This document shows positions 1,562 through 48,329 of a DNA stretch of 64,000 nt, in pieces. The first letter of the stretch is position 1; each line of letters starts with the position of its first letter. Made by a program: the position numbers and the translations under genes. The DNA is from an uncultured Bacteroidales bacterium (GTDB lineage Bacteria; Bacteroidota; Bacteroidia; Bacteroidales; UBA11471): NCBI GenBank assembly GCA_947625885.1, contig CANQQA010000003.1:64726-128725 (forward strand), given 5' to 3'. The notes below the pieces were generated by a model. The model did not search any database and was not told where the DNA came from. It was given only the letters and a program-made list of their open reading frames with translations.

Positions 1562-2839
1562 TCATAATAAATCAAATTTTGTCATTAAACGGGCTTTCAA
1601 TTCATCAACAATTTTTACGTATGGTTTCATTGCCGAAAAATCCGAATGACCAGTCCACTTCATTATTACTTCACTTGGGATTCCAAGCTGCAATGCGGTA
1701 ATGACAAATGTACGTCTACCGCAATGTGTTGTAAGCAATGCCCATTTGGGCAATACTTGTTCCATTCGTTTGTTACCTTGAAAATAAACAATGCGTGTCG
1801 GCGCATCAATTCCGCACACTTGACCGAGATTTTTCAAGTAGACGTTCATTTTTACATTGGAAATTACGGGCAATGCCAAATCGTCTGGAAATTGAATATC
1901 TTTGTACTTATCAAGTATGACTTGCGAATGCTTATTTAATTCAATACGCAATCCGTCATTCGTTTTCTTGGTTACAACCTCAATGAATCCATCTTTGATG
2001 TCGCTTCGTTTTAGCTTTGCAACGTCAGAATATCGAAGCCCCGTGAAGCAAGAAAACAAAAAAACGTCCCGGACACGTTCGAGTGATGATTGTGATGGCA
2101 AAAATTGATGTGTTTCTAAAATCTTTATTTCGTTTTGTGTCAAATATATTATTTCCTTAGAATTGCCATTAATGCCTTTCATTTTTGGTCTGAATGTGTT
2201 ATGGGCGGTTCCGTTGTAATACCCATTGTTTGCCGCCCAACGCAAGAACCAGCGTACAAATGCAAGATGTTTTGCAATGGTCGTATTTCTGAAATCTTTA
2301 TGTTGTAGATACTCAAAGTAACGTTGCATCTTTGCATCGTCAATTTGAGAGAACGACAAAGAGGGGTCAAAATCTTTCAAGTGTTTGCGAATCGCTGCAA
2401 ATTTTTCAAAAGTTGATATAGTCCATTGGTTTTGCCTGCCCATTGTTTCGGTAAAAATATCGAATCCGCGAAACAAGTCGTCGGGTTCATCTGTAATTTG
2501 GCTGTTTGTTTCCAGTTTTCGACCAATTATATCATTGAATAATTCTTTGATTTCGCAAGGTGTCGGGACACGTTTTTCTAACAGTTCAAAGCGAGCAAAG
2601 ATTTCATTCGTTATTGATTTCCATTCATCAATGGTTCGATTGATTTCTGTCGCAGCCTTACAAGATTGAAAGGCGCATTGGTGTTCAATATCCCAATCGG
2701 AAGCATTTATATTATGCCCTGTCGGAAAATCAATTGGCGTTTGCCCGCGCAAAGTTACACGCATACGGATTGCAAGGTTTTTGGAATCACCCTTGACCCT
2801 TTTGTGCAATAAGAATTTTACGCCCCGTTGAATGTGCAT
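1562..2839 (-). CDS. int: Site-specific tyrosine recombinase (phage integrase)
   Basis: 425 aa. The C-terminal catalytic region shows GLRYSDV, HCGRRTF and GHSDFSAMKPYVKI (H-x-x-R and catalytic Tyr context). It is located at the prophage edge next to the att site. Confidence 0.9.
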   Translation of the reverse strand: MHIQRGVKFLLHKRVKGDSKNLAIRMRVTLRGQTPIDFPTGHNINASDWDIEHQCAFQSCKAATEINRTIDEWKSITNEIFARFELLEKRVPTPCEIKELFNDIIGRKLETNSQITDEPDDLFRGFDIFTETMGRQNQWTISTFEKFAAIRKHLKDFDPSLSFSQIDDAKMQRYFEYLQHKDFRNTTIAKHLAFVRWFLRWAANNGYYNGTAHNTFRPKMKGINGNSKEIIYLTQNEIKILETHQFLPSQSSLERVRDVFLFSCFTGLRYSDVAKLKRSDIKDGFIEVVTKKTNDGLRIELNKHSQVILDKYKDIQFPDDLALPVISNVKMNVYLKNLGQVCGIDAPTRIVYFQGNKRMEQVLPKWALLTTHCGRRTFVITALQLGIPSEVIMKWTGHSDFSAMKPYVKIVDELKARLMTKFDLL

Positions 2840-5482: not shown

Positions 5483-7441
5483 ATGAAAAAAATAATTTTG
5501 AAATCCATTACCCTTTGCAACTTCAAGGGCGAAAAGGAAAGGACAACCAATTTCAATGCCGATGTTACAACGATAACAGGTGATAATGGTCTTGGGAAGT
5601 CAAGACACTTCGATGCTTTCATTTGGCTCCTTTTTGGAAAGGACGCGCAAGACCGTAAAGATTATGAAGTGAAAACACGTGTCAATGGTGAAGAATTGCA
5701 CAATGTTGAATGCAGTGTATCTGGTGTTATAGTCGTTGATGGTGAAGAAATATTGTTGAAGCGTGCATTCGTTGAAGATTGGGTAAAGCCTCGTGGGCAA
5801 GTAAAGCGAATATTCAAGGGGAATCACACCGAATGTGAATGGAATGGAACCCCGGTGAATGTTGGCGAATATTCAAAACGCATTGATGCAATCATTGATT
5901 CATCATTGTTTAAGATGATAACCAACCCGGCATTTTTTGTCAATATGAATTGGAAATTGCAGCGCGAACAATTGTTTCAACTTGCCGGGACAATTACAGA
6001 CGCCGAGATTGCTTCACAAAAGCCAGAATTTGCCGCTTTACTTGATAAAATAAGTGGTAAATCATTTGCAGACTTCAAAGCCGAATTGTTGGCACGAAAG
6101 AAGCGATTGAAAGATAACTTGGCGCAAATACAACCAAGGATTGACCAAACATATAAAATGATGCCGGAAAATGAAGATTTCCACGAAATAGAGGTGGAAA
6201 TTGAATCAATCGACAACGAACTTAACAGTATTGATAAGGCAATTTCAGATATTACAATTGCGTTTCGTCGTCAATATGAAGCCGAACAAGCTAAGCGAAA
6301 CAAAATAAACGCCTTGAAGTCTGAATGCGACCAGATAATTTTCAAGGCTAACGAGAAAATACAAACGTCTGTATATGAATCAAATGCCAATCGCCGAAAA
6401 CTTGACAGACAAATAAGAGAGAGTACACGATTGATTGATAGCACGAACAAGGACATTGAGATATGGAATGCCGCGATTGCCAAAATTCAAAGCGAAATCG
6501 AGAAAATCAAAACCGAGCAAGACAACTTGCGAAATAATTGGTTCCTTGAAAATGGCAAGAAGTACACTGGCGAAACTGTTTGCCCGCATTGTGGTCAAGC
6601 GTTGCCCGAAGAAATGATAATAAAAGCCCGTGAGGTGTTTGTAACAGCGCAAACGGAAAAGTGTAATGATATAAGCAATAAAGGAAAGCAGCTTGGCGAA
6701 AAGATTACTTCGCTTAAAGAGCGCATTGCCGAAATTCAACAATACTTAGACAAAGCAATAAAGGACAAAGAAACTTTGAATGCAGACATTGAAGCACTCA
6801 AAGCAAGATTTGTTGAATTTCCTATTATTGATGTTGCAGCCGTTATTCCGGAACAAATACCCGAATGGGTGGAAAAGCAAAAGGAAATTGCCGACATAGA
6901 AGCAACTATTTCAGACAACAATTCAAGTGTGGACACAACACAATTGCAAACGCAAAAGGCTGCCTTGGATAAAAAACGTGGCGAATTGGTTGTACGTCTT
7001 TCCAAAAGGGATATAATCATTCGTTGCGAAAGGGAAATTGCCAATCTTGAAGAAAAGGGAAAGACAATTGCACAACAAATAGCCGACGCAGAGCGCGAAG
7101 AATATACCGTTGAGCAATTTACAAAAGCAAAGGTAGAAGAATGCGAAAACCGCATCAATGCAATGTTCAAGTTCGTATCATTCCGATTATTTGATTATAC
7201 CATTGATGGCAACCCTGTTGAAACTTGCGTTGCAACCATTGGTGGTGTCATTTATGGCAGCGCAAATAAGGCAGGGCAAATGAATGCGGGTCTTGACATA
7301 ATAAACACGTTATGCAGGTTTTATGGCGTTTGCGCCCCAATATTCATTGATAATCGCGAATCCGTCAATAATATTATTGAAACTGAAAGTCAAATTATAA
7401 ACTTAGTCGTGAATCACGACAAATTTTTAACAATTAAATAA
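5483..7441 (+). CDS. SbcC/Rad50-like AAA ATPase with coiled coil and CxxC hook
   Basis: 652 aa. N-terminal Walker A GDNGLGKS, a long central coiled coil containing CPHCGQ (zinc-hook-like CxxC), and a C-terminal ABC-type signature region. Confidence 0.75.
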   Translation: MKKIILKSITLCNFKGEKERTTNFNADVTTITGDNGLGKSRHFDAFIWLLFGKDAQDRKDYEVKTRVNGEELHNVECSVSGVIVVDGEEILLKRAFVEDWVKPRGQVKRIFKGNHTECEWNGTPVNVGEYSKRIDAIIDSSLFKMITNPAFFVNMNWKLQREQLFQLAGTITDAEIASQKPEFAALLDKISGKSFADFKAELLARKKRLKDNLAQIQPRIDQTYKMMPENEDFHEIEVEIESIDNELNSIDKAISDITIAFRRQYEAEQAKRNKINALKSECDQIIFKANEKIQTSVYESNANRRKLDRQIRESTRLIDSTNKDIEIWNAAIAKIQSEIEKIKTEQDNLRNNWFLENGKKYTGETVCPHCGQALPEEMIIKAREVFVTAQTEKCNDISNKGKQLGEKITSLKERIAEIQQYLDKAIKDKETLNADIEALKARFVEFPIIDVAAVIPEQIPEWVEKQKEIADIEATISDNNSSVDTTQLQTQKAALDKKRGELVVRLSKRDIIIRCEREIANLEEKGKTIAQQIADAEREEYTVEQFTKAKVEECENRINAMFKFVSFRLFDYTIDGNPVETCVATIGGVIYGSANKAGQMNAGLDIINTLCRFYGVCAPIFIDNRESVNNIIETESQIINLVVNHDKFLTIK

Positions 7442-7450
7442 TAAGCAACA

Positions 7451-7732
7451 ATGGAAAAAAAAGAAAGCGAATTTACGCTTGCGACAAAAGCATTCGCAAA
7501 TGAAATTGAAAGCCTTACAAAAAAAGATGGCGTGAAACGTGGCATCATCATTATTGCCGGTGAGGATTTAGGCGAAACAACAGCACAAATAATCGCGGTT
7601 GTCGGCGATAGAATGGAAGCCATTTTGGCAATGGCTGAATTTGTAACAAGAAACGAAACAAGAGATTTGTGCCATGAGGGCATCAAGATGGGCGCATTCA
7701 AACAGATATGGGAACATTCAAAAAATAATTAA
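7451..7732 (+). CDS. Hypothetical protein
   Basis: 93-aa ORF in the operon between the ATPase and the RecT-like gene. Confidence 0.45.
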   Translation: MEKKESEFTLATKAFANEIESLTKKDGVKRGIIIIAGEDLGETTAQIIAVVGDRMEAILAMAEFVTRNETRDLCHEGIKMGAFKQIWEHSKNN

Positions 7733-7744
7733 AAGATTAAGAAA

Positions 7745-8629
7745 ATGAACGAAATTCAAAAAACAAATGGTGGCGCAATGACAGCCGTTGTGCCGCAACA
7801 AAATCAAGTAGGGTTTAACTTCTTCGACCCGGTACAATTTGACACAATACAACGTATCTGCAAGATGTTTGCAAATTCAGAACTTGTGCCGGATATGTAT
7901 AAAGTTTCTGATAAGAACTCTATCGAAAAGGCGATGGCAAATTGTATGATTGCCATCGAGGTTGCACAACGCATTGGCGCAAGCCCCTTAATGGTAATGC
8001 AAAATATGGCGCCGATTTACGGCAAGCCGTCTTGGTCGTCAAAGTTTCTTGTTGCGACCGTAAACACTTGTGGTCGATTCAACCCGCTGCAATATCGTTT
8101 TGTGGAAAAAGGTATGTTGGGAATGGTTGATTACGTCGAATATGTTTATGACAATACAACGAAAAGAAAAAATGCCGTAACAAAACAATTTGACGGCAGA
8201 AAAACAATGGATATTGAATGCGTTGCATTCACAACAGCAAAAGGGTCGGACAAAGTGTTGGAGAGTTCACCCGTTTCTGTACGCCTTGCAATTCAAGAGG
8301 GGTGGTACACAAAAAATGGTTCTAAATGGCAGACGATGACACGTCAAATGTTGATGTATCGCGCAGCTTCATTTTGGACAAGTGCTTATGCACCAGAATT
8401 GTCAATGGGTATGCGCACTGTTGAAGAAATGCAAGACATTCAAGATGCCGATTATCAAGAAGTTGTCGAAAATACAGCCGCGGAAGAAAAAGCAGAAAGA
8501 GCCAACAAGGTAAATATCGGTTCAGATATTGCCGATACAGACACTTCAAACAGTGAAACCCCAAACAACGAATCGGTAGAAACAAAAACTGAAACAGCGA
8601 AAGAAGAACAAAAAATACCGGGATTCTAA
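7745..8629 (+). CDS. RecT-like single-strand annealing protein
   Basis: 294 aa. The core AQRIGASPLMVMQNMAPIYGKPSWSSKFLVA resembles the RecT family pattern. It has an acidic C-terminal tail and a recombination-module context. Confidence 0.55.
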   Translation: MNEIQKTNGGAMTAVVPQQNQVGFNFFDPVQFDTIQRICKMFANSELVPDMYKVSDKNSIEKAMANCMIAIEVAQRIGASPLMVMQNMAPIYGKPSWSSKFLVATVNTCGRFNPLQYRFVEKGMLGMVDYVEYVYDNTTKRKNAVTKQFDGRKTMDIECVAFTTAKGSDKVLESSPVSVRLAIQEGWYTKNGSKWQTMTRQMLMYRAASFWTSAYAPELSMGMRTVEEMQDIQDADYQEVVENTAAEEKAERANKVNIGSDIADTDTSNSETPNNESVETKTETAKEEQKIPGF

Positions 8630-8650
8630 CAATCAAAATCCGAAAGGTTT

Positions 8651-9403
8651 ATGGAGTTGAAAATTTTGGGTTCAAGTTCAAATGGTAATTGTTATATGCT
8701 TGACAACGGCAAAGACTGTTTGATGATTGAATGCGGTGTTGCTTTCAAAGAAGTGCAAAAAGCCGTGAATTTCGACATTTCACGCATTTGCGGTGTTATT
8801 ATATCGCACGAACACGGCGACCACGCCAAACACGTTCAAAAGTGCCTTGATTCACGCATTCCGATATATGCTTCACATGGCACACTTGATTCGCTTGGGG
8901 TTGAAACCGCGAATGTGCCGAATTTGGTGCGCCCAATGAGTGAGTTGAAAATACATCAAATTGGTAAATTTAAGGTGCAGCCATTCAAAACCCAACATGA
9001 CGCCAATGAACCTTTCGGATTTCTTATCTATCACCCAGAATGCGGCAAGGTCTTGTTCGCTACCGATACATATTACTTGCATTACACATTTGATGGATTG
9101 AACAACATCTTGATAGAGTGTAATTATCGCCAAGACATATTGGATTCCAATGTTGAATCGGGCAAGATACACCCGGCAATGAGGGCAAGAACAATGAAAA
9201 GCCATTGCAGCTTTGACACTTGCCGGGAAATATTGCTTGCAAACGATTTGTCGAAAGTGAACAACATTGTGTTGATTCATATTTCAGACGGCAACGCCAA
9301 TGCGGGCGAGTTCAAGCAAGGAATCGTTGAAGCCACGGGAAAGACCGTTCACATTGCAGAAAGGGGAATGACAATCAAGAATTTTAATGTATCACCATTT
9401 TAA
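8651..9403 (+). CDS. Metallo-beta-lactamase fold hydrolase (probable recombination nuclease)
   Basis: HEHGDH motif (ISHEHGDHAKH) and downstream His/Asp residues. 250 aa, follows the RecT-like gene. Confidence 0.8.
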   Translation: MELKILGSSSNGNCYMLDNGKDCLMIECGVAFKEVQKAVNFDISRICGVIISHEHGDHAKHVQKCLDSRIPIYASHGTLDSLGVETANVPNLVRPMSELKIHQIGKFKVQPFKTQHDANEPFGFLIYHPECGKVLFATDTYYLHYTFDGLNNILIECNYRQDILDSNVESGKIHPAMRARTMKSHCSFDTCREILLANDLSKVNNIVLIHISDGNANAGEFKQGIVEATGKTVHIAERGMTIKNFNVSPF

Positions 9404-9412
9404 TTTATAACA

Positions 9413-10027
9413 ATGAAGAAATTTATATTGATTCAAAACGGCAAAGATGAGCCGATTGGAAAGTATAACACCAAGGCTGAAGCCTCCGACACTGTGGAAT
9501 ACATCATTGAAAAAAACAATGTTGGTTTACATTCGAGCGACGACCTATATTTGACAGTGTTTGACTTCAAAATAGAAGAATCAGAGGTCGAAGAAATCAA
9601 CGAAGTTGTTGCTAATTTTGACAATGCCAGATTTTACCTTAATATCAAGCCAAATGCGGATTTCACCTTTCCGAAAAAAATTTCTGGAAGCATTCTTGCA
9701 GACATTCGGCGTTTGGTTCGGGACGTAAACCCAAATCACATCAAAGCACTTATAGCCCTTAACGAGTTGTTCACCATTGCAGAGGCATGGAATAAGGCGG
9801 ATAACTTTGTTCCAGATTTCGGAAATACAAGTCAATACAAGTATTTCCCTTGGTTTGTATATAACAAGGGGGCTGCGGGGTTCGTTTGTGCGGCTGCGAA
9901 TGCTGCGGCGTCGTATACGAATGCGTCTGTCGGCTCTCGGCTTTGCTTCAAAACAGCGGAACGCGCGGAGCAATTCGGAAAGCAATTTGAGCCATTGTAT
10001 AATCAAGTTTTCTTACTTGGCAAATAA
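9413..10027 (+). CDS. Remote DGR target protein (carries VR2)
   Basis: 204 aa with no signal peptide. The C-terminal GAAGFVCAAANAAASYTNASVGSRLCF is encoded by a 76-bp copy of the TR, with mismatches only at TR adenines. Confidence 0.8.
   Translation: MKKFILIQNGKDEPIGKYNTKAEASDTVEYIIEKNNVGLHSSDDLYLTVFDFKIEESEVEEINEVVANFDNARFYLNIKPNADFTFPKKISGSILADIRRLVRDVNPNHIKALIALNELFTIAEAWNKADNFVPDFGNTSQYKYFPWFVYNKGAAGFVCAAANAAASYTNASVGSRLCFKTAERAEQFGKQFEPLYNQVFLLGK
9873..9948 (+). repeat. DGR variable repeat 2 (VR2)
   Basis: Gap-free alignment to TR positions 41-116 (45090-45165). By hand count there are 62 identities and 14 mismatches, all at TR adenines. It has the same 3' boundary (tgctt) and the same codon phase as VR1. 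Confidence 0.85.
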
Positions 10028-10044
10028 ATGTATCACTATAAAAC
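10027..10044 (+). promoter_or_regulatory. Recurrent phage motif copy 1 (aatgtatcactataaaac)
   Basis: Identical to the copy at 19982-19999. It overlaps the stop of the upstream gene and ends 7 nt before the ATG at 10052. Confidence 0.6.
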
Positions 10045-12734: not shown

Positions 12735-13322
12735 ATGAAAATTTATATATCTGGTAAAGTAACAGGTTTGCCGTATGACTATGTTAAAGATAAGTTCAAT
12801 AGTGTAGAAGAATTATTGACTGAAATTGGCTTTGAAGTGGTGAACCCTTTGAACAATGGTCTTGACAAAGATGATATGTGGGAAAAACATATTTGCAAAT
12901 GTATTGAAATGTTATTGCCTTGTGATGCTATCTATATGATGAACAATTGGGTCGATTCAATAGGTGCTTCAATCGAATATGATATTGCAAATAGAACATC
13001 AAAGTATATCTGGTTTGAATCTAATGTTCTACGCAACAACACTATCTTAACAAGGATTCATAACGCAATTCACGAAGTGATGGGTTTGAAGATAGAAGAT
13101 TATATCGTCAAGTCGCGAAAACGTGATGGATTTTTTGCAAGAATGATTCTTGTTTACCATTGTAGGAGAGAGAAGATGCGTTTGGCGGATATTGCTGCGT
13201 ATGTGAAACGCGACCATTCAACAGTGCTTCATTTGTTGAAGAAATATCAAGACGATTTCACCTACAATTCAGATTTTAGGAATTTGGCAACAAGAGTGAA
13301 TGATATATTGAATAAAAAATAA
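12735..13322 (+). CDS. Fusion of a DUF4406 (nucleoside deoxyribosyltransferase-like) domain with a DnaA domain IV-like HTH
   Basis: N-terminus is MKIYISGKVTGLPYDYVKDKFNSVEELLTEIGFEVVNPL...CDAIYMMNNWVDSIGASIEYDIA. C-terminus is RKRDGFFARMILVYHCRREKMRLADIAAYVKRDHSTVLHLLKKY. Confidence 0.55.
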   Translation: MKIYISGKVTGLPYDYVKDKFNSVEELLTEIGFEVVNPLNNGLDKDDMWEKHICKCIEMLLPCDAIYMMNNWVDSIGASIEYDIANRTSKYIWFESNVLRNNTILTRIHNAIHEVMGLKIEDYIVKSRKRDGFFARMILVYHCRREKMRLADIAAYVKRDHSTVLHLLKKYQDDFTYNSDFRNLATRVNDILNKK

Positions 13323-14386
13323 TGCACAAGTTTGATTTCCGTTGGACATTAAAAGATGCAAACTTCACAAAAGACAAAGGAGTTGTATTTTCGTGTTTCG
13401 CTGGTGGTGGCGGGTCGTCAATGGGATATAAATTAGCCGGATATGACGTTATTGGTTGTAATGAGATAGACCAAAGAATGATGTACGTATATTGTCAGAA
13501 TAACAACCCAAAGTTTCCTTTCCTTGAACCGATACAGACGTTCAAGGAAAGAGCGGACTTACCAACAGAATTGTTCAATCTTGATATTTTGGACGGTTCG
13601 CCACCCTGTTCTACATTTTCAATCGCTGGAAGTCGTGAATATTATTGGGGTAAGATGAAACATTTTCGCGAGGGGCAGGCGAAACAGGTGTTGGACACGT
13701 TGTTTTTTGACTTCATTGACCTTGCTAAAAAACTAAAACCGAAAGTTGTTGTTGCCGAAAATGTCAAAGGGTTATTGTTGGGTAAAGCAAAAGACTACGT
13801 AAGGCGAATTTATGAATGCTTCAACGATGCTGGGTATTATTGCCAGCATTTTGTTCTTGACGCACAAAATATGGGCGTCCCTCAAAGGCGTGAACGGGTG
13901 TTTTTTGTGTGCTTACGAAAAGACCTTGCCATGCCATTGTTGGAACGTGTATCATTATTTGAAAGAAAACCACGAATGAAGATGTGTTTTAACGAAATAC
14001 CTATTCTTTTTTGCGATGTTGCCGATTATTCCGGTCGAGAAATAACGTCAAATGTAATTCGCGCGTTATGGGACAACCGAAAGTATGGAGATTCAGACCA
14101 AGGAGATACAAACCAAAGATTGTATGGTAAAAGGTCTGATTTCAACCAATCATACGTTTACAGAGATAGAATTTGCCCAACTTTGCCGAGTAAAGAAACG
14201 AGCTTGATACATTTTGACCGACCGCAATTTCTTGGAAAAAGTGAAGTGTGTTGCATTTCATCATTTCCGCAAGATTATAATTTTTGCGGTCAATTGCCAC
14301 ATTATGTGTGCGGAATGAGCGTTCCGCCAATTATGATGGCGCAAGTGGCAAATCAAATTTGGGAACAATGGTTATCAAAATTATAG
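13322..14386 (+). CDS. dcm: DNA (cytosine-5)-methyltransferase
   Basis: Motif I FSCFAGGGGSSMG, motif IV GSPPCSTFS, motif VI ENVKGLL and motif VIII QRRERVFF. No restriction enzyme gene is adjacent. Confidence 0.9.
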   Translation: MHKFDFRWTLKDANFTKDKGVVFSCFAGGGGSSMGYKLAGYDVIGCNEIDQRMMYVYCQNNNPKFPFLEPIQTFKERADLPTELFNLDILDGSPPCSTFSIAGSREYYWGKMKHFREGQAKQVLDTLFFDFIDLAKKLKPKVVVAENVKGLLLGKAKDYVRRIYECFNDAGYYCQHFVLDAQNMGVPQRRERVFFVCLRKDLAMPLLERVSLFERKPRMKMCFNEIPILFCDVADYSGREITSNVIRALWDNRKYGDSDQGDTNQRLYGKRSDFNQSYVYRDRICPTLPSKETSLIHFDRPQFLGKSEVCCISSFPQDYNFCGQLPHYVCGMSVPPIMMAQVANQIWEQWLSKL

Positions 14387-16805: not shown

Positions 16806-16823
16806 GTTTTATAGTGATTCACC
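16806..16823 (-). promoter_or_regulatory. Recurrent phage motif copy in opposite orientation (ggtgaatcactataaaac on the minus strand)
   Basis: This is the only copy not co-oriented with a downstream gene. It lies in the 16774-16858 gap, 35 nt before the ATG at 16859 on the other strand. Confidence 0.45.
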
Positions 16824-16858
16824 TCTTAACTTTGCGATTTCATCGCAAAACAGTAAAT

Positions 16859-18513: not shown

Positions 18514-19982
18514 TGAATAAAAAGGCGGACAAAATAAAGTTGTGCAAGGCGTTGAAAGAAAGGCTTATTCGTGAAAGTCGTTCTGATTTGTTGCGTTTTA
18601 CCCTTTCAACAATGCCGACATTTCGTCCGGCAGACTTTCACCGCCGATATTATCAAGTCTTGACCGATTTTGCAGATGGCAAGATTCGCAAACTTATGGT
18701 CTTTATGCCCCCGCAGCACGGTAAAAGCGAGGGTTCAACAAGGCGTTTACCCGCATTCCTATTAGGCAAGAATCCAGACAAAAAGTTGGCAATTGTGTCG
18801 TATAATGCGCCAAAGGCAAGGAAGTTTAATCGAGAAATACAACGTATCATTGACACCAAAGAATATCACGATATATTTCCGAACACCGCACTGAACACTT
18901 CAAATGTTACAACGGTGGCGGGTTCTTGGTTGCGAAATGCTGATGAATGCGAAATTGTTGGTTATCGTGGCGGATTCAAGACGGTTGGTGTTGGTGGTGC
19001 TTTGACGGGTGAACCCGTAGATATTTTGATAATGGACGACATTTATAAGGACGCAAAAACGGCTTGGTCGCCCGTTGTTCGTGAAAGTGTTGTCGATTGG
19101 TACGATACAGTTGCCGAAACCAGACTTCATAACGATTCGCAACAATTGATTGTGTTCACCAGATGGCACGAAGATGACTTGGCGGGAACGTTGTTGCGCC
19201 AACAAGGTGTTTATGACCCAGAAACAAACACAGATGGTTGGGTTGTCGTGATATACAAGGCTATCAAAGAGGGAAAACCGACAGAGTACGACCCACGCCA
19301 AGAGGGTGAAGCCCTTTGGAGTGAACGCCATAATTTGAGCAAGTTGCAGTCGATACGAAAGAGAAATCCGCAAGTGTTTGAATCTTTGTACCAGCAAGAC
19401 CCGCAGCCTCGTTCTGGGTTGATGTACGAAAGTGGATTTGTGGAATATTCGATTCGCCCGGCAACAAAATATGTCAAGCGAAAGTGTTATGTGGACACAG
19501 CCGATACGGGAGCAGATTATTTGTGCGCAATCGTATATGACGAAACAGATGTTGGGAACTACATTGTCGATGTTCTTTACACCACTCGCCCCGTTGAATA
19601 TACCGAACCAGCCCTTGCAAAGATGCTTACCAAACACCAAGTTGCGGAATGTGTTGTGGAAGCAAACAATGGCGGGCGATTGTTCAAGAACAATGTTGAA
19701 CGGCAATGCAGATTGATGGGCAATGCCAAGACAAAGTTTTCGTCTTTTCACCAATCCGAGAACAAAGACACGCGCATTTATCAAAATTCTGCAATGGTGC
19801 AGAATCTTACGTTTATGCCGCAAGGTTGGAAAAACTTATTTCCAGATTTCTCAAAGGCGATATGTAGTTACTTGAAAGCTGGACAAAATGAACATGATGA
19901 CGCCCCAGATGCTTTGACTGGAACAATAGAAAAACGAACAAACCACAAAAAATCGGACGTGGCAAGTCTTTTTGGGTATTAA
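18513..19982 (+). CDS. terL: Terminase large subunit
   Basis: Walker A-like FMPPQHGKSE and Walker B ILIMDD. C-terminal nuclease residues are VDTADTGADY and NEHDDAPDAL. Confidence 0.85.
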   Translation: MNKKADKIKLCKALKERLIRESRSDLLRFTLSTMPTFRPADFHRRYYQVLTDFADGKIRKLMVFMPPQHGKSEGSTRRLPAFLLGKNPDKKLAIVSYNAPKARKFNREIQRIIDTKEYHDIFPNTALNTSNVTTVAGSWLRNADECEIVGYRGGFKTVGVGGALTGEPVDILIMDDIYKDAKTAWSPVVRESVVDWYDTVAETRLHNDSQQLIVFTRWHEDDLAGTLLRQQGVYDPETNTDGWVVVIYKAIKEGKPTEYDPRQEGEALWSERHNLSKLQSIRKRNPQVFESLYQQDPQPRSGLMYESGFVEYSIRPATKYVKRKCYVDTADTGADYLCAIVYDETDVGNYIVDVLYTTRPVEYTEPALAKMLTKHQVAECVVEANNGGRLFKNNVERQCRLMGNAKTKFSSFHQSENKDTRIYQNSAMVQNLTFMPQGWKNLFPDFSKAICSYLKAGQNEHDDAPDALTGTIEKRTNHKKSDVASLFGY

Positions 19983-19999
19983 ATGTATCACTATAAAAC
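19982..19999 (+). promoter_or_regulatory. Recurrent phage motif copy (aatgtatcactataaaac)
   Basis: Identical to copy 1. It overlaps the terL stop and ends 7 nt before the ATG at 20007. Confidence 0.6.
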
Positions 20000-27301: not shown

Positions 27302-27319
27302 GTTTTATAGTAATACATT
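27302..27319 (-). promoter_or_regulatory. Recurrent phage motif copy (aatgtattactataaaac on the minus strand)
   Basis: Ends 8 nt upstream of the minus-strand ATG at 27293 (SLOG gene). Confidence 0.55.
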
Positions 27320-27327
27320 TTTTTTGA

Positions 27328-28272: not shown

Positions 28273-28376
28273 GCAAATATAATAGTTATATTTAATATAA
28301 CAAACTTTTTCGGCAAAAAATGCACTTGCAATGCAAAATGTTGATAAGTTAAGCACAAATAGACTTGCATATATCA

Positions 28377-28394
28377 TTTGTATCACTATAAAAC
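28377..28394 (+). promoter_or_regulatory. Recurrent phage motif copy (tttgtatcactataaaac)
   Basis: Ends 44 nt upstream of the ATG at 28439. It lies between the candidate -33 and -7 boxes. Confidence 0.55.
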
Positions 28395-37788: not shown

Positions 37789-37793
37789 CAAAA

Positions 37794-37811
37794 TGTGTTT
37801 CACTATAAAAC
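37794..37811 (+). promoter_or_regulatory. Recurrent phage motif copy (tgtgtttcactataaaac)
   Basis: Lies between the tape measure stop and the next gene, ending 6 nt before the ATG at 37818. Confidence 0.55.
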
Positions 37812-43667: not shown

Positions 43668-44966
43668 ATGGGCTTAATTATTGGAGTAGGTGGCGCAAAG
43701 CCAACCTTTGCTTATGATTATTATTACGGAATCGAATGGGATTCGACAGTTTCAAATCCAAAGCCAAGCAGAATTGGTAAAATGGAATTGCACAAAACCT
43801 TGCCCGTTCAATCGTTGATGCGCCGTTGCATCTTGGCAGATGATGGCACAGTGAAATACTATCTTCACGCAAACGATTCGACAAAGCGCGACAATGGCGC
43901 TGCGGCAAACCTTACGGGCGCAGATGGGCAATATATGGTCGAGATACCGGAAGTTTATGTGCGCTTTGAAACAGACGGAACAAAAAACCGTGCATTGATT
44001 TCGACAACTGAATTACCCGGATTCCATCTTTGGAAAAAGGATTATATTTCGGCGGTAGAAGCAACCGTTCAACGTTCAACAACAAAATTGGCTTCGGTAG
44101 TAAATAATAGTACAGATTATCGCGGCGGAAATAACGATGCAAACCGCGACGGGAAAAACACAACCCAGCTCGGTATGCCCGCCACGCAAATATCACTAAC
44201 AACATTCCGTGATTATGCGCGCAAACGCGGTGCAAAGTGGAATTGCAATGTGTACCAAACACACAGAAAAATGTGGTGGTTGTATGCTATTGAATATGCT
44301 AATTTCAATTGCCAAGATGCGTTTAATGCGGCATTGACCAATGACGGTTACAAGCAAGGCGGTTTGGGTAATGGTGTAACCACATGGGATTGGACACAGT
44401 GGTCAAACTTTAACGGTAACTACCCTTTTGTGCCTTGCGGTACAACGAACAGTCTTGGCAATCATTCTGGGGCAGTTGATTATACGATTAAAAATGCAGA
44501 GGGTGGAGATTTGAAAACATTTTCCGTACCCTCGTATAGGGGTGTTGAAAACCCATTTGGACACATTTGGAAGTGGACGGACGGTTGCAAATGTTTGATT
44601 CAGTCGGACGAAAATGGCGGGTTATCCGAGTTTTATGTTTGTGATAATCCGGCAAATTTCACAAGTTCCGGAACGACAAATTATCAACTCCGAGGCGTTT
44701 TGCCAAGAAAAGAAGGTTATGTCAAATCCATGGTTCTTGGCGAAGATGGCGATATTATGCCGCTTGAAATTGGTGCTGGTTCAACCACATACTTTTGCGA
44801 TTACTTTTATACAAGTATTCCCGCAAGTGGTGTAAGTGAACGTGGCGTGTTGTTCGGCGGTGATGCGGATAATGGTGCGTATGCGGGGTTCGTTTTTGCG
44901 TCTACGCATCTTGCGGCGTCGGATACGTATGCGAATGTCGGCTCTCGGCTTTGCTTTTTACCGTAA
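43668..44966 (+). CDS. DGR target protein 1 (tail fibre / receptor-binding candidate with C-terminal VR)
   Basis: 432 aa. Its last 39 full codons before ..LP-stop are VR1, ending NVGSRLCF as expected for a C-type-lectin-fold-like variable C-terminus. Confidence 0.85.
   Translation: MGLIIGVGGAKPTFAYDYYYGIEWDSTVSNPKPSRIGKMELHKTLPVQSLMRRCILADDGTVKYYLHANDSTKRDNGAAANLTGADGQYMVEIPEVYVRFETDGTKNRALISTTELPGFHLWKKDYISAVEATVQRSTTKLASVVNNSTDYRGGNNDANRDGKNTTQLGMPATQISLTTFRDYARKRGAKWNCNVYQTHRKMWWLYAIEYANFNCQDAFNAALTNDGYKQGGLGNGVTTWDWTQWSNFNGNYPFVPCGTTNSLGNHSGAVDYTIKNAEGGDLKTFSVPSYRGVENPFGHIWKWTDGCKCLIQSDENGGLSEFYVCDNPANFTSSGTTNYQLRGVLPRKEGYVKSMVLGEDGDIMPLEIGAGSTTYFCDYFYTSIPASGVSERGVLFGGDADNGAYAGFVFASTHLAASDTYANVGSRLCFLP
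44841..44956 (+). repeat. DGR variable repeat 1 (VR1)
   Basis: 116-bp gap-free match to the TR with 16 mismatches, all at TR adenines (hand alignment). Confidence 0.9.
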
Positions 44967-45049: not shown

Positions 45050-45165
45050 CGTGGCGTGTTGTTCAGCGGTAATGCGAATAATGGTGCGAATGCAGGGTTC
45101 GTTTATGCGAATACGAATAATGCGGCGTCGAATACGAATGCGAATATCGGCTCTCAGCTATGCTT
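45050..45165 (+). repeat. DGR template repeat (TR), non-coding
   Basis: Adenine-rich copy of VR1 and VR2, with ten AAT codons in the targets' reading frame. It lies 167 nt upstream of the RT gene. Confidence 0.9.
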
Positions 45166-45332: not shown

Positions 45333-46361
45333 ATGAAACGAATTGGCAATATATTTGACAAAGTGATTTCGCTTGAAAATTTACGCCTTGCAGACGAAAA
45401 GGCAAGGAAAGGAAAAACGAAGTCTTACGGTGTTATGTTTCACGATAAAAATCGCGAAGCCAATTTACTTGCTTTGCACGAAAGTTTGAAAAATGGAACA
45501 TTCAAAACATCGAAGTATCACATATTCACGATTTACGAGCCGAAAGAACGTCGTATTTATCGGTTGCCATATTACCCTGACCGCATATTGCATCACGCCA
45601 TAATGAATGTTCTTGAACCAATATGGGTTTCGGTATTTACAAAAGACACATATTCTTGCATAAAGAATCGGGGAATCCATAAGTGTGCAAGAAGCGTGAA
45701 ACAATCGTTGAAGCAAGACCCGGACGGAACGCGATATTGTCTGAAAATAGACATTCGCAAATTTTACCCGTCAATCAACCATGAAATTTTGAAAAAGGTT
45801 GTGCGAAGAAAAATAAAAGATGAACGCCTTTTTGCGCTGCTTAACGAAATCATTGATTCGGTTGATGGTGTGCCAATTGGAAATTATCTTTCGCAATATT
45901 TTGCCAACCTTTTCTTGGCATATTTCGACCACTGGTTGAAAGAAAAAAAACGTGTAAAGTATTACTGGCGTTATGCCGACGATATTGTTATTCTTGCACC
46001 AAATAAGGACTTTTTGCACGAATTGTTGCACGAAATTCGTGCTTATTTGCGAAACAACCTGAAATTGGCTGTCAAGCGTAATTACCAAGTCTTTCCCGTA
46101 GATTCACGGGGAATTGATTTCTTGGGATATGTCTTTTATCATTCCCACACCCTTTTGCGAAAATCAATCAAACAAAAACTTTGTCGCCGGGTGGCAAGGT
46201 TGAATAAACGAAAGATTGGCGCAACAAAAGAATACTACAAACAACAAATTTGTAGTTGGTGGGGGTGGTGCAAGTATTGTGATTCTACCAATTTAATAAA
46301 CAAACTTTCAAAAACATTTCCGTATGAAATTAAATTCAATCGAAGCAAATGCGCATTATGA
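45333..46361 (+). CDS. DGR-type reverse transcriptase
   Basis: 342 aa with IGNYLSQYF (the DGR-typical [I/L]GxxxSQ motif) and RYADDIVIL (YADD catalytic box). It is adjacent to the TR. Confidence 0.9.
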   Translation: MKRIGNIFDKVISLENLRLADEKARKGKTKSYGVMFHDKNREANLLALHESLKNGTFKTSKYHIFTIYEPKERRIYRLPYYPDRILHHAIMNVLEPIWVSVFTKDTYSCIKNRGIHKCARSVKQSLKQDPDGTRYCLKIDIRKFYPSINHEILKKVVRRKIKDERLFALLNEIIDSVDGVPIGNYLSQYFANLFLAYFDHWLKEKKRVKYYWRYADDIVILAPNKDFLHELLHEIRAYLRNNLKLAVKRNYQVFPVDSRGIDFLGYVFYHSHTLLRKSIKQKLCRRVARLNKRKIGATKEYYKQQICSWWGWCKYCDSTNLINKLSKTFPYEIKFNRSKCAL

Positions 46362-46362
46362 C

Positions 46363-46710
46363 ATGGCGCACGGGAAGCCCGAAATTTTGGAAAAAGATAA
46401 TGACGGTTCTTATTTGTACCGTTTCAACATCGAACCAGAAATGGGCATTCCTTATGGTGGTGAAAAAGAAGTTCAAATCGGTTGGAAATGCTACGAGGTA
46501 CGCACATTCAACAAGCCGACAAAATCGAACTTGAAAAAAGTCATCATACGTTCAGTACTTGACGAAACGGCAGAATTTGACCTTGTAAATTCGTACAACA
46601 AACACATCTTGGGCGTTGTCGTTGATAAAAATGCGGTTGCAGCATACAAGGAATATTTGCAATTTACCGAGGATTTGGACGGGTTATTGGTAAACACATT
46701 GTCGAACTAA
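46363..46710 (+). CDS. Hypothetical protein downstream of the RT
   Basis: The ATG at 46363 lies 1 nt after the RT stop codon (TGA 46359-46361). The track start at 46324 overlaps the RT. It is not obviously Avd-like. Confidence 0.45.
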   Translation: MAHGKPEILEKDNDGSYLYRFNIEPEMGIPYGGEKEVQIGWKCYEVRTFNKPTKSNLKKVIIRSVLDETAEFDLVNSYNKHILGVVVDKNAVAAYKEYLQFTEDLDGLLVNTLSN

Positions 46711-47750: not shown

Positions 47751-48329
47751 ATGGCAAGCGTTGAAATTTTATTGCCGTTCATCTTGAAGTGGGAACGTGG
47801 TTTTGTAAACGACCCGGCAGACGCTGGTGGCGCGACGAATAAGGGCGTAACCATTGCAACTTGGCAAAATGTCGGTTATGACAAAGATGGCGACGGTGAT
47901 ATTGATGTGCTTGACTTGAAGTTGCTTTCAGATGCAGACGTGATGAATCGGGTTTTGAAGCCACATTATTGGAACCGCTGGAAAGCCGACCAGATACATT
48001 CACAAAATGTTGCAAACATCTTAGTTGATTGGGTGTGGTGTTCCGGCAAACACGGAATTGTCATTCCGCAAAGGGTGCTTGGTGTTGAGCCGGACGGAAT
48101 TGTCGGTAACAAAACGTTGTCGGCGGTGAACTTCGCAGACCCTTACAAATTGTTTGAAGCCCTATTCGATGCCCGAGTTGATTTCTTGAACGACATTACC
48201 AATGCAAGCATTGCTAAGTTTGAAAGGAAAATTGGACGCAAAGCGACAGAAAAAGAGTTGTTGGAATACACGAATAAACGCTTCTTGAAAGGTTGGTTGA
48301 ATCGCTTAAATTCGATTCGCACGCTATAA
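47751..48329 (+). CDS. Endolysin (GH108-type muramidase with PG_binding_3-like C-terminus)
   Basis: [24 protein letters not shown] is the GH108 signature, with [12 protein letters not shown] in the C-terminal part. An EF-hand/dockerin-like loop [12 protein letters not shown] is encoded at 47880-47915. Confidence 0.8.

Follow-up and report, generated by a model that had tools for sequence, protein, structure and literature searches.

Why would a phage retroelement that diversifies a tail protein also maintain a second variable repeat, in a small gene among recombination and replication functions at the other end of the prophage? Phage DGRs are treated almost wholly as tropism switches, varying the C-type-lectin tips of tail proteins. 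The initial annotation of this locus had placed such a second repeat (VR2) far from the template, in a gene with no signal peptide, and had regarded the arrangement as unusual. We analysed the whole 64,000-nt stretch of DNA around it (the window), together with related loci from sequence databases.

The prophage occupies ~1.5-49.4 kb of the window, with a GC content of 0.41 as compared to 0.54 in the flanks, and it is organized around a single DGR, with one template repeat (TR) and one reverse transcriptase (RT) serving two targets, VR1 and VR2 (Table 1). Three copies of one repeat are present in the window, at 9833/9873-9948, 44841-44956 and 45050-45165. The RT has the signatures of a DGR-type enzyme, namely motif 4 ([I/V]GxxxSQ, here IGNYLSQ) and the catalytic YxDD (here YADD). 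VR1, unlike VR2, has a downstream stem, GGCGT-GAA-ACGCC, for which relatives carry compensatory variants, and the VR of the VR1-protein family matches the VR of BPP-1 Mtd in register (LFGG...G[SA]R), albeit weakly (hhalign E 0.035). No Avd, HRDC or similar accessory gene was found among the ORFs around the cassette by Pfam, NCBIfam or PHROG matches. A 128-aa ORF (46324-46710; phrog_11557) overlaps the 3′ end of the RT gene and is an Avd candidate by position only. The small ORFs 3′ of the RT are unrelated between the window's clade and the sister clade described below, so that none of them qualifies as a shared accessory gene.

Table 1. Features of the prophage and of its two DGR target sites, in window coordinates.
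Feature	Position	Strand	Description
Integrase	1562-2839		Prophage
Upstream recombination module	5483..9403	+	SbcC-like ATPase, 93-aa ORF, RecT, MBL-fold hydrolase
VR2 target gene	9413..10027	+	ORF, 204 aa; phrog_11581 E 2.8e-18; ~60-aa N-terminal domain and ~140-aa C-terminal domain with VR
VR2, second variable repeat	9873..9948	+	Gap-free against TR 45090-45165, 62/76 identical; register extendable to 9871
5′ homology anchor GGGTTCGTTT	9878..9887	+	10 nt, adenine-free; identical in TR, VR1 and VR2
VR2 mutable tract	9888..9929	+	42 nt; 16 TR adenines; 10 variable codons (residues 159, 161-164, 168-170, 172, 173)
IMH-like 3′ boundary TCGGCTCTCGGCTTTGCTT	9930..9948	+	19 nt; common to VR1; TR counterpart (IMH* equivalent) is TCGGCTCTCAGCTATGCTT
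19-nt repeated upstream element AAATGTATCACTATAAAAC	10026..10044	+	Directly after the VR2 target stop codon
DNA methyltransferase	13322..14386	+	phrog_116 E 7.5e-69; 3.3 kb downstream of the VR2 target
VR1 target, 432-aa tail protein	43668..44966	+	phrog_5302 'tail protein' E 8e-131; VR1 at the end of the gene
VR1, cassette-adjacent variable repeat	44841..44956	+	116 nt; 16 mismatches to TR, 16/16 at A
Template repeat (TR)	45050..45165	+	AAT-codon-rich; 168 nt upstream of the RT ORF; near-identical or identical in close relatives
DGR reverse transcriptase	45333..46361	+	Pfam RVT_1 E 3e-20; IGNYLSQ and YADD
Endolysin	47751-48329		Prophage

The gap-free alignment of VR2 with TR in the initial annotation (62 identities, 14 mismatches, all at template adenines) was reproduced with no indels and no mismatches at other bases. 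The 14 mismatches fall on 14 of the 20 adenines in the stretch. Extending the register to 9871-9872 adds a fifteenth A-site mismatch, and homology to TR ends upstream of 9871, so that VR2 is 76-78 nt long compared with 116 nt for VR1; as had been claimed, it is the 5′ end that is shorter. The common 3′ boundary and codon phase also held, since both repeats begin at codon position 2 and share the same 19-nt end. A search with the TR pattern in which every A was replaced by N returned exactly three matches in the window (VR2, VR1 and TR itself) and 0 in 100 shuffles. VR2 lies 35.2 kb from TR and encodes the peptide GAAGFVCAAANAAASYTNASVGSRLCF, residues 153-179 of the 204-aa protein.

VR2 is a minimal target site, built from a 5′ anchor, a mutable tract and an IMH-like end. 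The lineage variants of the anchor (GTGT, GTCT, GGCTTC) are mirrored across TR, VR1 and VR2 of each contig, and the 16 templated adenines of the mutable tract allow about 4^16 DNA variants. On the 5′ side of that tract, VR2 has no more than the anchor and a few further bases in common with TR. At the 3′ end, the VR copies (VR1 and VR2, 21 genomes) finish with ...TCGG(C/T)TCTCGGCTTTGCTT and TR finishes with ...CAGCTATGCTT. Two differences between VR CGGCTT and TR CAGCTA (A/G and A/T) are fixed in both VRs of 21/21 genomes, and one of them, CTA>CTT, is synonymous yet invariant. The invariance of both A-site differences places them beyond the transferred tract. The asymmetry between IMH and IMH* gives BPP-1 retrohoming its direction, and by analogy the 3′ boundary of VR2 would behave like an IMH placed opposite IMH*. 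This 3′ sequence and the short 5′ homology are the only features common to the VR1 and VR2 sites. The weak hairpin that had been noted after VR2 (gcg-gaa-cgc, 9956-9964) is present as sequence but folds no better than shuffles (z = +1.1); it is not conserved, and is missing from many relatives in which VR2 is still diversified.

Is VR2 still being rewritten? The five closest database matches to the 204-aa protein (P0002-P0006, 96% identity) are identical to it outside the VR, bar one substitution in P0006, and each differs from it at ~8 VR residues. In the contigs that encode them, the VR2 DNA departs from the window only at TR-adenine positions, TR shows either no change or a single A>G, and VR1 varies independently of VR2. 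Thus, the comparison with related genomes that the initial annotation had called for bears out its suggestion that the two repeats are diversified independently from one TR, with conserved flanks and changes confined to TR-adenine sites. Among 120 relatives, column entropy averaged 1.88 bits over residues 159-173 against 0.15 elsewhere, and the high-entropy columns were those with an A in the TR codon. The residues observed fit the reach of A-to-N substitution: AAT columns held up to 16 residue types, ACG columns T/A/S/P, and ATC columns I/F/V/L. The TAT columns held C/Y/F/S, plus A.

More diverged phages were retrieved from IMG/VR as 80 loci with a relative of the target (46-72% identity) and 80 loci with a relative of the RT (68-92%). 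Both genes were present on 21 contigs, of which 20 were usable for comparing VR2 with TR. Measured against the TR of its own contig, VR2 had 258 mismatches at A and 3 at non-A positions. Lineage-specific changes at non-A positions of TR (GTTT/GTGT/GTCT; GCGGCGTCG/ACGGCTACG/ACGCCGTCG; CGGCTCTC/CGGTTCTC) reappeared in VR1 and VR2 of the same contig, and VR2 followed its own TR in this way across phages with target proteins just 53-63% identical. Such mirroring of non-A changes in both VRs can be accounted for only by continued copying from TR. The spectrum of bases at A sites was alike in VR1 and VR2, with ~45% of adenines kept and G, T and C at ~17-21% each. The exact TR/VR pattern of the window had 0 matches in IMG/VR because the relatives differ at non-A sites. 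Judged by these sequence comparisons, VR2 is almost certainly a genuine and active DGR target templated by the single TR, and its diversification is A-specific, independent of that at VR1, and evolutionarily persistent. Mechanistically, copies of TR mutagenised at adenines enter VR2 again and again, besides the adjacent VR1, and the difference between the IMH-like end and IMH* would set the direction of transfer from TR to VR2.

The location of the target is as stable as its repeat. In the window, an SbcC-like ATPase, a 93-aa ORF, RecT and an MBL-fold hydrolase lead up to the target, which is followed by phrog_12688, DUF2303, Lin1244_N, a DnaC-like loader, a nucleoside deoxyribosyltransferase-like gene, the DNA methyltransferase and, further on, terminase and portal. 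This order agrees with the earlier placement of the gene at the end of the recombination module; the target lies outside the tail module, between the MBL hydrolase and the replication genes. The order SbcC-RecT-MBL-target-...-DnaC-like-MTase recurs in ~63/80 IMG/VR loci. The remaining loci belong to other phage types, and the motif ...AGFV...GSRLCF is still present in them. Hosts of the family are Bacteroidales, including B. pyogenes, Prevotella, Parabacteroides, Alistipes, Muribaculaceae, Tannerellaceae and Dysgonomonas. The 19-nt element after the target stop codon occurs 6 times in the window (0.01 expected), every copy just upstream of a start codon, and here the next expression unit probably begins with it.

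The 204-aa protein is soluble and acidic by sequence (pI 5.5). The statement that it lacks a signal peptide and a TM segment held (maximum Kyte-Doolittle score over a 19-residue window, 0.94), as did the position of the VR short of the extreme C-terminus, with 25 residues and the stop codon beyond it. The protein has no Pfam match (E ≤ 0.1), and searches of the target and its neighbours against Pfam, NCBIfam and PADLOC returned nothing informative, the target itself having no match in any of the three, and none to profiles of defence or anti-defence proteins. Its sole match to a 'tail' PHROG spans residues 154-181, 28 residues that are the VR itself. Searched exhaustively with HMMER, 1.84 billion representatives yielded 1082 clusters at 50% identity for the phrog_11581 family at E ≤ 1e-3, and 207 at E ≤ 1e-10. 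The conserved part of the family corresponds to residues ~95-204 of the window protein. Some members have longer N-termini, in which no Pfam domain hints at a function.

An AlphaFold2 model of the protein (132-sequence alignment; pLDDT 93.3, pTM 0.82) predicts a β-β-α-β domain at residues 1-60, short helices at 62-75, and a C-terminal part, a compact α/β domain, composed of helices 92-104 and 107-129, a β-hairpin (143-151/156-165), a loop (166-178) and helices 182-191 and 193-200. In this model, the variable residues occupy the second hairpin strand and the following loop, ahead of the two C-terminal helices formed by the residues after the VR, and model confidence dips there. The proposed C-type-lectin or DUF1566-like fold was not found by Pfam, Foldseek, a profile search of PDB sequences or hhalign. 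Foldseek gave no fold match and no lectin among 350,542 PDB chains (best E 0.37, TM < 0.2), a library in which lectins are numerous and the solved DGR variable proteins are included; among predicted viral structures, the model matched only uncharacterised phage proteins. The profile search of PDB sequences returned nothing relevant, no similarity to the FGE-sulfatase, DUF1566 or Mtd families was detected by Pfam, that profile search or hhalign, and the hhalign comparison with BPP-1 Mtd was in the wrong register (E 0.79). In a profile-profile comparison of the target family with the VR1-protein family, only 38 columns aligned, and these are the VR.

The scaffold thus has no detectable similarity to C-type lectins and is apparently non-lectin, in a comparison for which the positive control, an AlphaFold2 model of the VR1 protein from a shallow alignment (≥ 75% identity), reached a pLDDT of only 31 and was too poor to use. 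The predicted α-α-β-β-loop order could be a reduced variant of the lectin fold. As modelled, the same templated peptide would be displayed both by a lectin-type tail protein and by a small scaffold that is unrelated, or undetectably related, to it.

The phrog_11581 domain is a recurrent partner of DGRs. In distant members, the ~140-aa domain is duplicated in tandem, and in their DNA the copies are divergent except for one block, which has identical flanks and differences of the NNT/NNC type; such proteins therefore contain two VRs. In a sister clade, for which 20 loci were retrieved from IMG/VR, the RT is 59-64% identical to that of the window, and phrog_11581 genes lie immediately upstream of TR in 14/15 loci with an RT match, with 2-3 copies of the domain directly upstream of TR and RT. 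The stretches compared in this clade (VR plus 6-nt flanks) had 483 mismatches at TR adenines and 81 at other bases, the latter mostly in the flanks. In one locus, a pair of neighbouring single-domain genes (E 3e-33 and 6e-29) precedes TR and RT. On one side of this cassette lie a DnaC-like loader and a replication-initiator-like gene, on its other side lies a DNA methyltransferase, and the head genes come downstream of the whole group. A DNA methyltransferase lies near the RT in three further loci of the clade. The phrog_11581 profile matches the window protein and the sister clade's cassette-adjacent targets with E-values of 3e-18 to 3e-33. Thus, the domain is tied to a DGR and to a non-structural region in two lineages with different cassette layouts. 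A few members may be undiversified, such as P0146, which has no RT within 10 kb of its gene on a contig of ~99 kb, and whose VR region lacks the Tyr/Ser/Asn-rich composition.

What might such a protein do? Since the gene sits in an early recombination, replication and methyltransferase region in two lineages, and the protein has no export signal and no similarity to structural proteins, it is probably not a virion component. We propose that it acts as an intracellular binder whose hypervariable loop would track a variable partner. This partner would be a factor of host defence or DNA processing encountered at an early stage of infection. The location of the gene downstream of RecT and nuclease-like genes and near a methyltransferase would suggest a host nuclease or defence factor, and recalls host-nuclease inhibitors of the Gam or Abc type. 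We consider it somewhat better than an even bet that this DGR is a two-target system in which the second target is a putative early intracellular binder of a variable host partner. The broader claim, that phrog_11581 is a widespread non-lectin class of DGR variable proteins, expressed early as intracellular hypervariable host-factor binders in anti-defence or host takeover and separate from tropism switching, is tentative, and we lean against it.

The strongest competitor is a virion protein whose gene simply lies away from the structural module. It would be an accessory adhesin of the tail or head, or another receptor-binding protein, varied by the DGR for recognition of cell surfaces just as VR1 is. 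To our knowledge, the experimentally characterised phage DGR targets are all receptor-binding proteins of the virion. The second targets of other gut phages (tentaclins) are read as adhesins, and with one TR templating both VR1 and VR2, the two loops sample the same chemical space. Virion proteins, too, normally carry no signal peptide. Set against these points are the fixed position between the MBL hydrolase and the replication genes in ~63/80 loci, and the sister-clade cassette, which places 2-3 such genes in a replication and methyltransferase module. The protein is also very small, has no recognisable virion-attachment domain, and resembles no structural protein by PHROG, Pfam or fold outside the 28 residues of the VR. 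On balance, we regard a virion role as unlikely, though still a serious contender.

Alternatively, the protein could be made in the lysogen as a hypervariable sensor of incoming competitors, comparable to the proposed DGR-diversified sensors of cellular conflict systems. Intracellular, DGR-diversified putative antigen sensors are reported from bacteria (PMC10907252), and the window protein is cytoplasmic by sequence and has a DNA methyltransferase and other conflict-type genes nearby. The minimal unit of the family, however, is a ~140-aa binding domain with no effector or NTPase domain; the gene lies within a co-oriented lytic early operon rather than at the repressor or integrase positions typical of morons, and there is no PADLOC match, all of which makes a sensor quite improbable. 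Finally, that VR2 is a decayed relic or a chance similarity, as its shortness and the lack of a significant hairpin downstream might hint, has next to no probability left, being refuted by the flank-identical relatives that differ at A sites only, the tracking of TR in 20 contigs, the entropy pattern, the IMH-like end conserved in 21/21 genomes and the absence of chance matches in shuffles.

Under the preferred reading of an early intracellular binder, DGR hypermutation would reach from adsorption into the arms race that follows entry, and the phrog_11581 family would offer a small (~140 aa), naturally evolvable binding scaffold. In either case, one retroelement here has kept a second protein hypervariable over long evolutionary periods, encoded amid recombination, replication and methyltransferase functions, and related phages use the same target family as their cassette-adjacent target. 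Surveys that demand adjacency of VR and RT miss such remote targets, and Roux et al. 2021 concede that these were undetectable in their own survey. If a non-lectin intracellular class exists, metagenome surveys that require a VR beside the RT would largely have missed the phrog_11581 targets.

How does this system compare with those already described? As in BPP-1 (Mtd/VR1, TR, Avd, Brt), a single TR and RT operate, mutagenesis is specific to adenines, the VR lies within the 3′ part of its target ORF, and the repeat has an asymmetry of the IMH/IMH* type at its 3′ end (an element summarised in PMC5758913); the VR1 of the tail protein also aligns in register with the Mtd VR. In BPP-1, however, the only target is adjacent and has a C-type-lectin fold, an Avd gene is present, and the IMH is followed by a GC-rich hairpin. 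VR2, by contrast, is 35 kb away in a small protein of non-structural context for which no lectin fold was detected; another 25 residues follow it, but no significant hairpin, and no Avd was found for its cassette. The tentaclins (Baykov et al. 2023, PMC10743442) are a gut-phage precedent for one TR feeding two functionally different target genes. In that system, however, both targets are C-type lectins inside the cassette and are read as receptor or adhesin proteins, while the VR2 target is remote, lies in the early region and has no detectable lectin fold. In PHROGs v4, phrog_11581 has no annotation, and we found no record there of a link to DGRs.

Roux et al. 2021 describe annotated VR regions as 'systematically' lectin-fold and expect reduced lectin variants for uncharacterised VR domains. 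The Bacteroides and gut-phage targets of Macadangdang et al. and the UHGV preprint are lectin-fold pilins or tail proteins, and recent large gut-virome analyses still treat phage DGRs as tropism-switching (PMC12636319).

Remote second targets as such have been reported. According to Wu et al. 2018 (NAR, PMC5758913), DGRs associated with phages frequently possess a target that is not adjacent but lies within 50 kb on the same prophage, an arrangement like the one found here, with one target beside the cassette and one elsewhere. That survey, as far as its available text goes, gives positions and domain categories, mostly CLec variants, and we came across no small target family of the early region in it. 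Dahlman et al. 2025 (Nature, PMC12629997) report that four Bacteroidota prophages (Wilby, Shia, LoVEphage and Saffi) have a second VR at a distal position close to a DNA methyltransferase, a context that the methyltransferase 3.3 kb downstream of the VR2 target matches, and note that these VRs adjoin counter-defence genes. Like the window prophage, the four are temperate Bacteroidota phages with a DGR cassette by a tail gene and no annotated Avd, and Wilby, at 46.7 kb, is close to it in size. Judging by the published description, their distal VRs are very likely the same phenomenon. Megablast and tblastn searches of a phage collection that did not include these four gave no near match and one weak match. 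The account in Dahlman et al. 2025 differs from ours in consisting of one sentence and a figure, and describes no target protein, family, fold or second-VR activity.

The central claim of the initial annotation, a second, remote VR in a small gene of the early region without a signal peptide, is borne out in each of its elements. As an arrangement, a non-adjacent second target within a prophage is known already (Wu et al. 2018; Dahlman et al. 2025). What appears to be new is the target class, which those reports do not describe: small phage proteins that form a large family, with a VR scaffold that is apparently not a lectin, encoded in the early, non-structural replication region here and beside the cassette in a sister clade.

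Some phages of the sister clade, in which phrog_11581 genes lie directly upstream of the template repeat (TR) and the reverse transcriptase (RT) gene, have one TR serving three variable repeats (VRs) in phrog_11581 domains, and one of the three VRs in L200 lies ~5 kb away from the cassette. Two IMG/VR loci on different contigs (L088 and L090) encode homologues of the VR2 target whose VR peptides are identical and end in GSQLCF; the Gln in this ending matches the TR-type CAG rather than the CGG that is otherwise universal in VRs. This homologue may have lost its IMH, the 3′ VR boundary, and stopped diversifying.

At a GCA codon, the TR adenine at 45094 is replaced by G in both VR1 (44885), in the tail protein gene, and VR2 (9877). 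The change is synonymous, and G was found in both VRs in all genomes having A at this TR position (20/20); the VR1 A sites flanking 44885 on either side are freely variable. The G may reflect context-biased misincorporation, or else an unexplained fixed difference between TR and VRs.

The VR2 target also has single hypervariable positions beyond the TR-homologous tract, and these are not TR-templated. Among 120 relatives (mean entropy outside the VR 0.15 bits), Tyr142 (9836-9838) reached 1.85 bits, with S, Y, P, T, D or C at this residue, and Pro194 (9992-9994) reached 1.37 bits. Both may be contact residues under selection, next to the VR loop.

The neighbouring MBL-fold hydrolase may act as a nuclease in recombination or as an anti-defence enzyme that degrades cyclic nucleotides; its match to the anti-Pycsar Apyc1 family was weak and sub-threshold, scoring 16.7 bits (E 0.005) where the cut-off is 50.

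When up to three mismatches were permitted, the 19-nt motif AAATGTATCACTATAAAAC occurred six times in the window (0.01 expected), each time with a start codon shortly downstream (6/6), at gene junctions, for example between the VR2 target and the gene after it, between terminase and portal, and between the tape-measure gene and the one that follows. The motif is a candidate promoter or translation-initiation element specific to the phage. Because of the two exact copies, the ORFs after them seem to share the N-terminal peptide MYHYKT; gene callers take the next ATG as the start.

Coordinates of features in the window and of three-VR arrangements in sister-clade loci
Feature	Position	Strand	Remark
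MBL-fold hydrolase	8651-9403		directly upstream of VR2 target; Lactamase_B match
AAATGTATCACTATAAAAC copy	10026-10044	+	≤3 mismatches
AAATGTATCACTATAAAAC copy	16806-16824	-	≤3 mismatches
AAATGTATCACTATAAAAC copy	19981-19999	+	≤3 mismatches
AAATGTATCACTATAAAAC copy	27302-27320	-	≤3 mismatches
AAATGTATCACTATAAAAC copy	28376-28394	+	≤3 mismatches
AAATGTATCACTATAAAAC copy	37793-37811	+	≤3 mismatches
128-aa ORF, phrog_11557	46324-46710		unknown function; overlaps RT gene 3′ end
Three VRs, L200	2244-2312		sister clade
Three VRs, L201	1168-1840		sister clade
Three VRs, L217	10211-11033		sister clade

No match to the profile of Avd, the accessory factor of BPP-1 type, was found anywhere in the DGR cassette. 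Most sister-clade loci carry a 101-aa ORF (phrog_19665), unrelated to the phrog_11557 ORF of the window, at the equivalent position after the RT gene; by position, either ORF is a candidate for the gene of an accessory factor resembling Avd.
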